A DNA stretch of 63,299 bases, the filler included. It is 5 parts of 5 records of this genome, joined end to end, with 100 filler letters (N's around TTAATTAATTAA, not from the genome) between each part and the next. Parts side by side here need not be neighbours in the genome. Positions count along the whole stretch, not along the records: positions 11,814 to 30,270 come from DRR378314_1153; 4 more parts are not named here. One strand, written 5' to 3'. Both the position numbers and the translations under genes were made by a program. The notes beneath the pieces are model-generated. The model was not told the DNA's origin and did not search any database. It saw nothing but the letters and a program-made list of their open reading frames with translations. Below are positions 11,714 through 55,601 of the stretch, piece after piece. Each line of letters starts with the position of its first letter. Positions within the stretch are counted from its first letter, which is position 1.

Positions 11714-11813
11714 NNNNNNNNNNNNNNNNNNNNNNNNNNNNNNNNNNNNNNNNNNNNTTAATTAATTAANNNNNNNNNNNNNNNNNNNNNNNNNNNNNNN
11801 NNNNNNNNNNNNN
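11714..11813. other. Artificial contig-joining spacer
   Basis: N-run, TTAATTAATTAA (stops in all six frames), N-run; 100 nt. Confidence 0.99.
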
Positions 11814-11847: not shown

Positions 11848-12009
11848 CGTCACCCCCGATGGCCAAAGGCCATCTGGGGGCCCATCTTCGAACAGCGCGG
11901 CAGGGAACAAGGGGACAGAGGAGACTGAATCCCCTGAACCGCGCAGGACGCACTTGGCGGCCCTGTTCCGAGATGGGCCCCCAGACCGCTGGCGCGGTCG
12001 GGGGTGACG
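11848..12009. repeat. CGTC-type REP doublet 1 (two inverted ~40-nt palindromic units)
   Basis: 11848-11887 CGTCACCCCCGA-TGGCCAAAGGCCA-TCTGGGGGCCCATCT. 11971-12009 AGATGGGCCCCCAGA-CCGCTGGCGCGG-TCGGGGGTGACG is its reverse complement except for the inner hairpin. Confidence 0.9.
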
Positions 12010-12032
12010 CCAAGGAGGGTAAACCGTGTTCC

Positions 12033-12335
12033 CTACCCCGTAATCTCGAACCACAAATCCTTCCAATCGGGATTGCGCTCCGTGATCAGATTGATCTTGT
12101 TCTTCCGCCGATAGGATTTCAGGGATTTTTCGCGAGCAATCGCTGTGCTGATCTCATCATGCAACTCATACCAGACGAGCGTCTTGCACCCATACTTCTG
12201 CGTGAACCCGCCGAAAATGCCTTCACGGTGTTGCCAGACACGCTGGACAAGGTGGGACGTAACCCCGGTGTAGAGCGCGCCCTGCTTGCGATTGGCCATC
12301 ATGTAGACGGCAATTATGCGGTCCTCATTGGCCAT
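12033..12335 (-). CDS. Small stand-alone GIY-YIG nuclease (YhbQ/UPF0213-like)
   Basis: AVYMMAN..GALYTGVTSHL..RVWQHREG..GFT.KYG...LVWYE....AIAREKSLK...R..KINLI...NPDWKDL; catalytic Y, Y, R and E present. Confidence 0.93.
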   Translation of the reverse strand: MANEDRIIAVYMMANRKQGALYTGVTSHLVQRVWQHREGIFGGFTQKYGCKTLVWYELHDEISTAIAREKSLKSYRRKNKINLITERNPDWKDLWFEITG

Positions 12336-12379
12336 GCCCAGCCCCCTTCCCCAACCTCCCTACACAATAACAAAGGTCG

Positions 12380-12540
12380 CGTCATTCCCGATGGCCGCAG
12401 GCCATCTGGGAACCCATCTCTGAACGAAATGGCAGAGTACGCCATGTATTGTGTGGGGAAACCCGCACGCCCCCCGCACCGGACGCACCCGGTCGCCGCG
12501 TTCAGAGATGGCCCCCAGACGCTGCGCGTCGGGGGTGACG
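12380..12540. repeat. CGTC-type REP doublet 2 (direct repeat of doublet 1)
   Basis: 12380-12419 CGTCATTCCCGA-TGGCCGCAGGCCA-TCTGGGAACCCATCT and 12506-12540 AGATGGCCCCCAGACGCTGCGCGTCGGGGGTGACG. Inner extension CTGAACG/CGTTCAG. Confidence 0.9.
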
Positions 12541-12559
12541 CCAAGAGGAGGGGAAATAC

Positions 12560-12629
12560 GTAGAGCGGGTCACGACCCGCCAAGGGATGAAACCACGTGG
12601 CGGATTGGTCTTTGCTAGCCGCCCAATAC
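12560..12629. repeat. GTAG-type REP plus a degenerate inverted partner
   Basis: GTAGA-GCGGGTC-AC-GACCCGC-C at 12560-12581; GGCGGATTGG...CTAGCCGCCCAATAC at 12599-12629. Confidence 0.55.
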
Positions 12630-12630
12630 G

Positions 12631-13452
12631 TTATCGAGGGTCGCCGATCATATCAGCTTCGGTCAGATCCAGTAGAAATCGGATAAATGCGACCGATAAG
12701 CTCACGAATGCCACCGCTACCTCAAAAGGTGGAGGAGTCGGATCTGGGTCGGTATCTGCGTGACGGTAGGAATGAGCACCGTCTGCATGCTTTCCAAAGG
12801 CGGATAAAAGTAACTTGCTCGCGTCGGCCGCGCGCCCTGAGTATTTGGATTTTATCCGCGGAACAAGTGACTCCGTTATAGACTTAGAGCCCAAACGACT
12901 TGCTCCAGTCTGCTGTTTAAAAACGTTCTCGGCAGCATCAAAAGCATACCGCACAGCGTCTAATGTTCCGGTTCCATCAGGTTTGAGACTCTTGAAACAT
13001 ATCTCCAAAGACTGATGGGCAGCTACAAACTTCGATGATGCTAAACTTTCTAATATGGATAATCTGCTTTGCTCGAATTCGGCATCGACCAACGGATGGA
13101 TACTGCCGTCAGAATCAATCCTGTAAAATAAATTCTCTTCGAGAAAAATTCGGGAGATTTTAGCTACCCACACAGAAAACTGGCTTGAGTAGTTCGCTTT
13201 TAGCAATTCTGCGATAAGCGTGATGGAATCCAAGAAATCCCGAAGCTCACAATTTTGAAAAAACTCCTCAAAATTCCAATCATAGTAAGAACTGGGGACC
13301 TCGACTCCGAGCTCCGTTCGTATCACTGCGGGAAGTTTACTTTTGATCGATTCCGAGAGTTCAAAAAAATACCCAAACACCCTTCTTCGAGCTCTTTCAG
13401 AGTCGTCACCAAGCTTTCCAAGCTCGATATACTTACGACTGTATAGTGTCAT
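12631..13452 (-). CDS. AbiJ-NTD4-like / HEPN-like protein, candidate anti-phage effector
   Basis: Visibly AT-rich relative to its flanks. LYSRKY N-terminus, ELRDFLDSIT, RIFLEENLFYRID, DAVRYAFDAAENVFK and C-terminal AHSYRHA. Family assignment is by recognition only. Confidence 0.6.
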   Translation of the reverse strand: MTLYSRKYIELGKLGDDSERARRRVFGYFFELSESIKSKLPAVIRTELGVEVPSSYYDWNFEEFFQNCELRDFLDSITLIAELLKANYSSQFSVWVAKISRIFLEENLFYRIDSDGSIHPLVDAEFEQSRLSILESLASSKFVAAHQSLEICFKSLKPDGTGTLDAVRYAFDAAENVFKQQTGASRLGSKSITESLVPRIKSKYSGRAADASKLLLSAFGKHADGAHSYRHADTDPDPTPPPFEVAVAFVSLSVAFIRFLLDLTEADMIGDPR

Positions 13453-13499
13453 AAACAAACATCCCGTGTGCTACTTATCCGCGCAACATTCCAACGCCC

Positions 13500-14597
13500 C
13501 TAACTCATCCACCTCAGCACACGGGGTTCAATCGGGTTCGTGAAGTCGCGGCCTTCTGTCCGGCATTCCGTCCACTCACGTTTTAGCCGCTGGTACCATT
13601 TGGCCTGGATGTCGATATCGTCTATCCACATCATGGCTTTCTGGTGGGCCATGCCCTGGTTTTGCAGATCCACCATGTCGCCATCCTGGCGCAGGAATTT
13701 GCGGGCCATCGGCTTGGCGATCGGCACGGCGAGGTGCAGCAGCGGCGCGCCGGTCCACCAGGTGAACTGGGTGATCCGTGTACGTTTCGGCGCCTCTGGC
13801 GTAAGGCAGGTGAGCGTCAGCAGGCGGGCTTTGTCATTCGAGATAATTTCCCAGCGATAGCCGGGCAGCTGGAACCGGATCTCGGTTTCCACATCATCCC
13901 CGAAGACCCAGCGATACAATTTCGAGTTCGAGCTGGGCGGATGGCGGTCAATCGCCCAGCCGCGCTCCGTCGGGATGAAGGGCTTCTCTTTCAGCTTCAG
14001 GCCGACCGAGGGCGGACGCCACCACCATTGATTGTGCACGAAGGGCACATGGGCCGGGTCCATCAGGCCTACCACGGCATCATCCATATGGGCGTTGAAC
14101 ACGTCATGGATGACAAAGCCGGGCTTTTCCGGCAGCGGGCCGAATTCCGGCGGCGGCACGGCGGGGGGCGTGTCCGCGCGGGGATTGTGCGCGACATAGA
14201 GATAGACCGCGCCATTCGCCTCATGCACCGGATAGCGGCGCACTTTTACCCTGGACGGGTCATAGGGGCTGTCGTCGGTGAGGGATGGCATCAGCTTGCA
14301 GCCGCCATCCGTGCCGAAGCGCCAGCCATGATACGGGCATTGCAGCGTCCACTCGCCATCGGTTTCCAGTTGCTGGCCCGCCGATAGCGGCACAAGCCGG
14401 TGCGGGCAGATATCACGCAGGGCGAACGCCTCCCCTGCCGGAGTGCGGCCGACCACGACGGGTTCGCCCAGCACCATGATGCGCTGCTGCTTGCCGGGCT
14501 TCAGCTCATCCGAGGGCGCGGCCAGATACCAGCTATCGGTCAGGAAGCCATCATCGGTGATGCCCTGCTTGGGCGCATTATGCTGTGTGTCGGGCAT
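13500..14597 (-). CDS. Rieske non-heme iron oxygenase (VanA-like)
   Basis: DICPHR...CPYHGW Rieske motif; MDPAHVPFVH mononuclear Fe site. Confidence 0.9.
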   Translation of the reverse strand: MPDTQHNAPKQGITDDGFLTDSWYLAAPSDELKPGKQQRIMVLGEPVVVGRTPAGEAFALRDICPHRLVPLSAGQQLETDGEWTLQCPYHGWRFGTDGGCKLMPSLTDDSPYDPSRVKVRRYPVHEANGAVYLYVAHNPRADTPPAVPPPEFGPLPEKPGFVIHDVFNAHMDDAVVGLMDPAHVPFVHNQWWWRPPSVGLKLKEKPFIPTERGWAIDRHPPSSNSKLYRWVFGDDVETEIRFQLPGYRWEIISNDKARLLTLTCLTPEAPKRTRITQFTWWTGAPLLHLAVPIAKPMARKFLRQDGDMVDLQNQGMAHQKAMMWIDDIDIQAKWYQRLKREWTECRTEGRDFTNPIEPRVLRWMS

Positions 14598-30270: not shown

Positions 30271-30370
30271 NNNNNNNNNNNNNNNNNNNNNNNNNNNNNN
30301 NNNNNNNNNNNNNNTTAATTAATTAANNNNNNNNNNNNNNNNNNNNNNNNNNNNNNNNNNNNNNNNNNNN
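30271..30370. other. Artificial contig-joining spacer
   Basis: N-run, TTAATTAATTAA, N-run. Confidence 0.99.
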
Positions 30371-46831: not shown

Positions 46832-46931
46832 NNNNNNNNNNNNNNNNNNNNNNNNNNNNNNNNNNNNNNNNNNNNTTAATTAATTAANNNNNNNNNNNNN
46901 NNNNNNNNNNNNNNNNNNNNNNNNNNNNNNN
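46832..46931. other. Artificial contig-joining spacer
   Basis: N-run, TTAATTAATTAA, N-run. Confidence 0.99.
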
Positions 46932-55501: not shown

Positions 55502-55601
55502 NNNNNNNNNNNNNNNNNNNNNNNNNNNNNNNNNNNNNNNNNNNNTTAATTAATTAANNNNNNNNNNNNNNNNNNNNNNNNNNNNNNNNNNNNNNNNNNN
55601 N
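55502..55601. other. Artificial contig-joining spacer
   Basis: N-run, TTAATTAATTAA, N-run. Confidence 0.99.

Follow-up and report, generated by a model that had tools for sequence, protein, structure and literature searches.

Genomic context of the nuclease gene

The window, i.e., the whole stretch of DNA analyzed here (63,299 nt), is a pseudomolecule in which five contigs were joined through N44-TTAATTAATTAA-N44 linkers. Close to the beginning of the second contig (11814-30270) is a gene encoding a 100-aa GIY-YIG protein, enclosed by two modules of ~162 nt (11848-12009 and 12380-12540) that are direct repeats of each other. The left module begins at 11848, 34 nt past the contig join, and the DNA to the left of the join is therefore not its native neighbor. 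Gene and modules together are referred to as the ssn unit, after the Ssn nucleases and their hairpin motifs (NTS and SRM) described by Chenal et al. in March 2025 (Nat Commun 16:2388, PMC11893778). The features of the locus are as follows.

11714..11813, no strand: artificial contig join N44-TTAATTAATTAA-N44 (N run)
11848..11887, plus strand: candidate SRM hairpin a, forming the outer arm of the module downstream of the gene (repeat D1, inverted repeat I13, folding)
11888..11970, no strand: downstream-module spacer, with GGACGCAC at 11946-11953 (repeat D2)
11971..12009, minus strand: candidate SRM hairpin b, 24 nt beyond the stop codon (repeats D4 and I8)
12033..12335, minus strand: ssn gene, 100-aa single-domain GIY-YIG nuclease, probable member of the Ssn family (PF01541 and homology)
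12380..12419, plus strand: candidate SRM hairpin c, 45 nt from the ssn start, CGTCATTCCCGA-[tip]-TCTGGGAAC-CCATCT
12420..12505, no strand: upstream-module spacer, with GGACGCAC at 12481-12488 (repeat D2)
12506..12540, minus strand: candidate SRM hairpin d, forming the outer arm of the module upstream of the gene (repeats D4 and I9)
12631..13458, minus strand: variable cassette gene encoding 275 aa, with a weak match to AbiJ_NTD4 (PF18863, E = 7.5e-7)

Hyphomonas atlantica, at 95% nucleotide identity, served as a stand-in genome for the window. The position of the ssn unit, immediately downstream of a Rieske oxygenase gene (13500-14597 in the window), is shared by the window, H. atlantica and two Hyphomonas metagenome-assembled genomes (MAGs). 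The slot between unit and Rieske gene is occupied in the window by the cassette gene, whose match to PF18863 (30.2 bits) falls under the 34-bit cutoff and for which PADLOC returned no match; the same slot holds an unrelated 346-aa open reading frame (ORF) in H. atlantica and is empty of the cassette gene in the two MAGs. The ssn unit is adjoined by a variable cassette slot, as elements in Neisseria are adjoined by strain-variable genes.

The two modules repeat with a period of 531 to 535 nt in direct orientation, and 122 of the 198 columns of their alignment are invariant. Three repeats are shared between them: D1 (61 nt, 75% identity), D2 (43 nt, 77%, including the internal motif GGACGCAC) and D4 (18 nt, 100%, GTCGGGGGTGACGCCAAG). 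Each module is an inverted pair of ~35- to 40-nt hairpins with CGTCA at the start of each. When folded as single-stranded DNA (ssDNA), the modules reached −62.6 and −55.0 kcal/mol, compared to −35.9 ± 3.2 and −34.8 ± 3.2 kcal/mol for their dinucleotide shuffles (z = −8.4 and −6.2; 0 of 200 shuffles folded as well). The layout described in the original prediction, a 100-aa GIY-YIG gene between two CGTC hairpin modules in direct orientation that share an internal motif and a purine-rich CCAAG tail, was borne out by the PF01541 match, the repeats and the folding. No further copy of a module was found in the 63 kb, the best match outside the locus being 13 nt long (E = 0.12). At the level of single hairpins, all four have the form CGTCA-[stem-loop-stem]-C. 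Hairpin c starts with CGTCATTCCCG, the first 11 nt of the Neisseria NTS, and carries TT...AA where the other three copies have CC...GG, a compensatory change. On the strand of the hairpin itself, CTTGG precedes both hairpin b (12010-12014) and hairpin d (12541-12545).

The 100-aa protein matched a single Pfam family, PF01541 (GIY-YIG; E = 2.7e-13, 50.5 bits against a cutoff of 22.6, residues 9 to 82), and is identical (100%) to a protein of H. atlantica 22II1-22F38. Most relatives are of similar size (94 to 100 aa, range 79 to 169 among the 120 relatives listed). An alignment of 19 homologues showed Y11, Y22, G24, R32, H36, R68, E69 and N88 to be invariant, as is the NPxWxDL tail; judging from this alignment, the GIY-YIG catalytic Tyr/Tyr/Arg/His/Glu/Asn set is intact in the Hyphomonas protein. 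Searches with the protein assigned no NCBIfam family and returned no PDB sequence match at E ≤ 0.01, and PADLOC gave no match for the nuclease. A promoter scan identified a single weak site, overlapping the ssn start codon; the promoter would presumably lie within the 12420..12505 spacer or further upstream.

Homologues of the nuclease are flanked by tagged hairpins across phyla

The original prediction had stated that no cognate enzyme was established for CGTC-type palindromes. That statement was outdated: the question of which enzyme serves these palindromes was answered in print in 2025, with the description of the Ssn/SRM system (PMC11893778). Ssn proteins are there described as single-domain GIY-YIG proteins of ~94 aa (SsnA; CDD cd10448, GIY-YIG_unchar_3) that bind a hairpin motif in ssDNA and make a cut on its upstream side, restricted to one strand, while double-stranded DNA and RNA are reported not to be acted on; the biochemistry was demonstrated for members from Neisseria and Wolbachia (PMC11893778). 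The Neisseria motif, NTS, is CGTCATTCCCGCGMAVGCGGGAATCYRG and was generalized to SRM; three bases preceding the palindrome on its 5′ side and a C just 3′ of it are important determinants (PMC11893778), and both of these are kept in all four hairpins at our locus. An SRM is found in the vicinity of 71% of the published homologues, and 42% are flanked by SRMs on either side; the Discussion likens NTS-ssnA-NTS to insertion sequences and to RAYT/REP (PMC11893778). Among the papers listed by our literature searches, none linked GIY-YIG proteins to REP repeats before this paper and none dealt with Ssn after it.

The published homologues are defined by tblastn at E < 1e-10 to N. meningitidis SsnA (PMC11893778). 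Supplementary Data 4 of the same paper lists a cd10448 homologue with a CDD score of >100 in H. atlantica GCF_017795365.1; this is not the H. atlantica assembly matched here, and the H. atlantica genome has three homologues; the table applies at the level of the species. Taken together, transitive homology and this species-level entry indicate that the 100-aa protein is probably a member of the Ssn family.

The association between gene and hairpins was evaluated at 80 loci encoding relatives of the 100-aa protein, with hairpins scored when they followed the tag HGTCWY. The density of tagged hairpins was 1.67/kb in the 400 nt next to the gene, falling to 0.134/kb at distances above 1 kb, a 12.4-fold enrichment, compared to 0.7- to 2.0-fold for four control tags. 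At least one tagged hairpin lay within 400 nt at 45 of the 80 loci, and 26 of the 80 had them on both sides. Homologues sit beside the exact NTS at two loci (L028 and L042) and beside versions with one or two changes at others; these NTS-flanked homologues are 52 to 60% identical to the 100-aa protein and come from Cellvibrionales, Nitrospinota, Sphingorhabdus and others. Approached from the motif, the exact NTS was found in 35 of 401 sampled Pseudomonadota genomes (control hits, 0). Of the five NTS-richest genomes, three (62 to 232 exact NTS each) encode homologues of 49 to 55% identity (E = 1e-27 to 4.5e-33), one of which directly abuts an NTS; the richest of all (409 NTS) has a split copy only, in two frames (46 to 58% identity; E = 5.8e-13 and 9e-10); and one gave no match to the 100-aa protein.

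The claim that this GIY-YIG subfamily recognizes CGTC palindromes is upheld by the enrichment at the 80 homologues and by the biochemistry in PMC11893778. The check proposed for it, on whether hairpins accumulate in the flanks of homologues, came out positive for CGTC-tagged hairpins. The pairing of Ssn nucleases with CGTC hairpins is real and was already published in 2025; the present locus is an added member.

Strong, GC-rich intergenic hairpins on either side of a small gene could also be ordinary transcription signals, such as bidirectional terminators, insulators or an operator, with no substrate tie to the nuclease, and the proximal hairpin does separate the start codon from any promoter further upstream. 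However, the hairpins have no T-run and a terminator scan found none at their positions, an Rfam search returned no match at E ≤ 1, and the non-palindromic 5′ tag and 3′ tail, neither of them a terminator feature, are conserved. The enrichment near homologues is moreover tag specific, and the same motif is bound and cut in vitro by family members (PMC11893778). We consider a purely transcriptional function very improbable.

A long-stemmed hairpin type in Hyphomonadaceae

The published SRM string, HGTCWYN(0-2)YYVSBRHN(0-5)WNVSBRGN(0-2)RNCYNB, had no match on either strand of the whole 63-kb window; it misses the four hairpins because their stems exceed the gaps that the string allows. In the published scoring, H. 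atlantica is likewise without SRM enrichment (17 observed versus 27.9 in shuffled genomes; PMC11893778). A consensus for the Hyphomonas-type hairpin, CGTCA-YN-CCCGA-[tip]-TC-T-GGG-NR-CCCAT, describes 56 distinct hairpin cores. In these, stem position 7 is occupied by four Watson-Crick pair types, and the tip, with 46 variants, is still 92% complementary; a one-base bulge is conserved (T in 45, C in 8 and A in 3) and the CCCAT tail is present in 35. As read from these cores, covariation maintains the hairpin stem.

The Hyphomonas arrangement resembles the published Ssn/SRM system in its single-domain GIY-YIG protein of ~95 to 100 aa with an NPDWxDLW tail, in the oriented CGTCA-Y hairpins that bracket the gene with a C straight after the palindrome, and in the recurrence of this bracket around homologues in several phyla. 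It differs from the Neisseria NTS/SRM in a longer stem (11 to 13 pairs versus 8 to 9) with its conserved one-base bulge, in a hypervariable tip, and in the joining of hairpins into inverted doublets of ~115 to 162 nt; the words “REPIN” and “doublet” have no occurrence in the main text of PMC11893778. Copy number differs as well, the motif numbering hundreds per genome in Neisseria and Wolbachia and five in H. atlantica.

These five copies are spread over 3.6 Mb: the ssn locus has three, a fourth lies at a distance of 765 nt from a paralogue, and the fifth is solitary. The three H. atlantica Ssn paralogues are 100, 53 and 47% identical to the 100-aa protein, and a half-module (94% identical) lies near one of them. 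At the C7 locus, the hairpins beside the paralogue bear the tag GCTCAY. Across 121 Hyphomonadaceae genomes, the hairpin type was found in 25 (72 hits, 0 control hits), and by hand count 21 of the 72 hits lay within 1 kb of an Ssn ORF. Of the 16 genomes whose orthologue reached 60% identity or more, 13 contained hairpins, compared to 12 of 105 without such an orthologue (Fisher's exact test, P = 2e-8). Hairpin type and protein clade are associated, but the link is not strict: the genome with most copies (G054, 16 hairpins) has only Ssn paralogues of ≤52% identity, another (G043) has six hairpin copies and no Ssn at E ≤ 1e-10, and three genomes with orthologues gave no strict hairpin hit.

Could the repeats instead be REPs of the conventional kind, dependent on a RAYT (HUH Y1 transposase) encoded at another site, among which a GIY-YIG gene happened to land? 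The nearest approach to such an enzyme in H. atlantica is one 187-aa ORF with a sub-threshold Y1_Tnp match (20.8 to 21.6 bits versus a cutoff of 23); no PF01797 match above the Pfam cutoff was found in that genome, and the Y1_Tnp-like ORF (L094) has no such hairpins within ~1 kb. Against this explanation, four of the five motif copies in H. atlantica are beside Ssn genes, the association with Ssn homologues holds across phyla, and the hairpin tag is CGTCA, not the GTAG tetranucleotide carried by RAYT-linked REPs. The odds that the repeats are RAYT dependent appear vanishingly small.

Predicted action of the Hyphomonas nuclease

The explanation that we favor, and consider highly probable, is that the 100-aa gene is an ssn and that its four CGTCA hairpins are long-stem variants of SRM/NTS, predicted to be bound as folded ssDNA and nicked, only on the strand that bears the tag, at a point a few bases 5′ of it. 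This reading follows from the homologues found beside the exact NTS, the intact catalytic residues, the tag-specific enrichment, the covariation in the stem and the association with protein clade. By analogy with other family members, the Hyphomonas Ssn would cut each of the hairpins in single-stranded form. Two cuts 531 nt apart would result on the coding strand, whose tags at 12540 and 12009 both follow a CTTGG; on the opposite strand, tags at 11848 and 12380 would likewise yield two cuts. The nuclease is likely to act on ssDNA exposed in replication, repair or DNA uptake, at few motif loci, and with so few motifs its role is likely local and not genome-wide.

Is the unit mobile?

A bolder interpretation is that the module-ssn-module arrangement is, or recently was, an autonomous mobile element and that doublets lacking the gene are REPIN-like passengers mobilized by Ssn. 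On either strand, cuts 5′ of two like-oriented tags would free a single strand of ~532 nt containing the gene and one module. The layout across phyla resembles terminal inverted repeats (TIRs), with the upstream hairpin on one strand and the downstream hairpin on the other; two whole modules stand in direct orientation with their period of 531 to 535 nt; genomes have one to four Ssn paralogues; and the same idea is raised in the Discussion of PMC11893778. Doublets are also found away from any ssn gene. In G054, a doublet of ~135 nt is present in 11 copies (74 to 86% identity), a part that was matched in none of 30 relatives. In G043, what immediately follows the same Rieske gene is one module without an ssn, which would fit a deletion between direct modules.

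Set against this, the unit is syntenic among the window, H. atlantica and the two MAGs, at a single site (85 to 95% nucleotide identity), and a second synteny group spans 64 to 83% protein identity. In H. atlantica the unit occurs once, and the hairpins number only five. Solo doublets stand at orthologous sites of different species (L084/L086, L085/L087 and L093/L097; one partly deleted) and are therefore old and decaying. The search for an empty site, suggested in the original prediction, gave one candidate: G074, the best among 30 relatives, has an intergenic region ~195 nt shorter than that of G054, but the two are too diverged for a clean alignment or for boundaries to be placed, and no target duplication was evident. 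Judged as an insertion sequence, by near-identical copies and by presence or absence at other sites, the unit is a single copy with paralogues of 47 to 53% identity. Contigs from four of 22 public runs were inspected: they broke off at the modules and included a half-module paralogue; the spacer was 53 nt shorter in one contig, and in one a module-like stretch was linked with the Rieske gene through 1219 other letters. These contigs, which are blind to rare forms, yielded no form that was excised, circular or lacking the gene. GIY-YIG enzymes are hydrolytic nucleases and are not known to perform a strand-transfer step.

On balance, we regard mobility of the unit, present or recent, as unlikely. 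The suggestion that the subfamily spreads CGTC REPs found no support here, no Ssn being known to transpose, and that of a minimal selfish element finds little support at this locus, given its synteny in four genomes, its single copy and the five hairpins in 3.6 Mb. In this lineage, ssn has the behavior of a resident gene that is inherited vertically and has few motif copies, not that of an actively spreading element.

Comparison with known repeat-nuclease systems

Like RAYT/REP/REPIN/BIME systems, the locus combines a small nuclease gene at a fixed chromosomal site with inverted hairpin doublets of a dispersed type on its flanks, and, to go by other Ssn members, in both cases a folded single strand would be recognized. 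The enzymes are unrelated in fold and chemistry: the flanked gene here encodes a hydrolytic GIY-YIG nuclease and not an HUH Y1 transposase (PF01797), the tyrosine enzyme that acts through a covalent intermediate in RAYT. In contrast to RAYT/REPIN, there is also no large repeat population, with five strict copies in H. atlantica and a maximum of 16 among the 121 family genomes. IS200/IS605 “peel-and-paste” elements are similar in their subterminal one-strand hairpins, very small size and one nuclease gene; unlike these, the ssn unit is without an HUH transposase, multiple identical copies, or demonstrated excision or insertion.

Intergenic mosaic elements (NIME) in Neisseria are bounded by dRS3 repeats. 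Inverted palindromes of the ATTCCC...GGGAAT type there enclose spacers of ~50 to 150 nt beside strain-variable genes, much like the doublets described here. The Hyphomonas hairpins differ from dRS3 in host class, in their longer stem and in numbering only a handful of copies, and no link to a phage integrase was seen.

Pursuing the likeness to RAYT further, Ssn could relate to CGTCA doublets as RAYT does to REPINs, with the doublet as the non-autonomous unit and module-ssn-module as the master copy from which the ~532-nt single strand is released. We think this improbable. If true, bacteria would possess a second, mechanistically unrelated generator of REP-like repeats, a GIY-YIG enzyme in place of an HUH enzyme, and the 11-copy doublet family of G054 would represent a recent burst.

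Implications for the Ssn family

As it stands, the locus indicates that cognate hairpins can form doublets like those of REPINs and that such doublets can be retained by different species at orthologous sites. It also indicates that an ssn gene can persist with a handful of motifs, which argues against a role based on genome-wide coverage in this lineage. The published SRM string under-detects the motifs of at least one lineage, in that the long-stemmed, bulged hairpins of Hyphomonas escape it, and genomes scored as having Ssn without SRM enrichment may therefore hold cognate motifs that have gone unrecognized.

Genomic setting of the ssn unit

Five contigs separated by four N44-TTAATTAATTAA-N44 linkers make up the window, a pseudomolecule in which sequences on opposite sides of a linker are not true neighbors. 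Features of the unit and its surroundings are as follows (L001, Hyphomonas atlantica locus; L002, another homologue locus).

Window 11714-11813, 30271-30370, 46832-46931 and 55502-55601: contig linkers
Window 11893-11947: spacer stretch of the downstream module, possibly variable in length
Window 12546-13499, L001 3542-4795 and L002 4695-4790: cassette slot
Window 12567-12582: hairpin GCGGGTCRTGACCCGC in the common cassette-end segment
L001 5807-8685: far-side flank of the ssn unit in H. atlantica, past the start of the window's contig

Between the ssn unit and the stop codon of the Rieske oxygenase gene lies a slot that holds a variable cassette. In the window it is occupied by an AT-rich gene of 275 aa with a weak match to AbiJ_NTD4, in H. 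atlantica by an unrelated 346-aa open reading frame (ORF), and in two Hyphomonas MAGs it is reduced to ∼90 nt without a gene. Both of the differing cassettes (window and H. atlantica) are closed by the same ∼45-nt segment, which holds the hairpin GCGGGTCRTGACCCGC.

The far flank in H. atlantica carries a lone Cas2-like gene (131 aa; PF09827, E = 8e-7), a P63C-domain gene and an IS1595-family transposase, and the ssn unit therefore adjoins a mobile or variable island. Within the unit, a contig from one marine metagenome run (X4) held the downstream module minus 53 nt of its spacer and ran on into the ssn gene, suggesting that spacer length is polymorphic between strains.

Hairpins and Ssn homologues in other genomes and at paralogous loci

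Loci elsewhere were as follows.

L096 (G043:C21:101000-103100), 1042-1208: solo doublet in the Hyphomonadaceae genome G043
G235:C87:1578-1854 (L101): split Ssn homologue
L094 (G001:C12), 781-1341: 187-aa H. atlantica ORF with a subthreshold Y1_Tnp match
L082 1800-1880; L083 1300-1350 and 2240-2573: hairpins at H. atlantica paralogue loci

Hairpin doublets also occurred apart from ssn. G043 has six hairpins of the Hyphomonas type and no Ssn homologue was found in it at E ≤ 1e-10; one doublet, without an ssn gene, directly follows the same Rieske gene as the ssn unit. Another Hyphomonadaceae genome, G054, has 16 such hairpins (loci L089 to L092 and L104), and a ∼135-nt doublet is present in it 11 times (74 to 86% identity). 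Because this doublet had no match among the 30 relatives searched, the family may represent a lineage-specific burst.

G235, which has more exact NTS motifs than any other sampled genome (409 in 4.5 Mb), yielded a single Ssn homologue, in two overlapping pieces in different frames, which may be a broken gene. The 187-aa ORF of H. atlantica, whose match to Y1_Tnp (IS200-like) falls just short of threshold (20.8 bits against a cutoff of 23), may be a RAYT-like gene that has diverged. It has no CGTCA hairpins within ∼1 kb.

In H. atlantica, two GCTCAY-tagged hairpins with a CCCGGCG stem come after the 47%-identical Ssn paralogue. Around the 53%-identical paralogue, related hairpins with a common CATCTCGGAAC tail form a mosaic, together with a half-module (94% identical). 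Hairpin type thus differs between Ssn paralogues within one genome.
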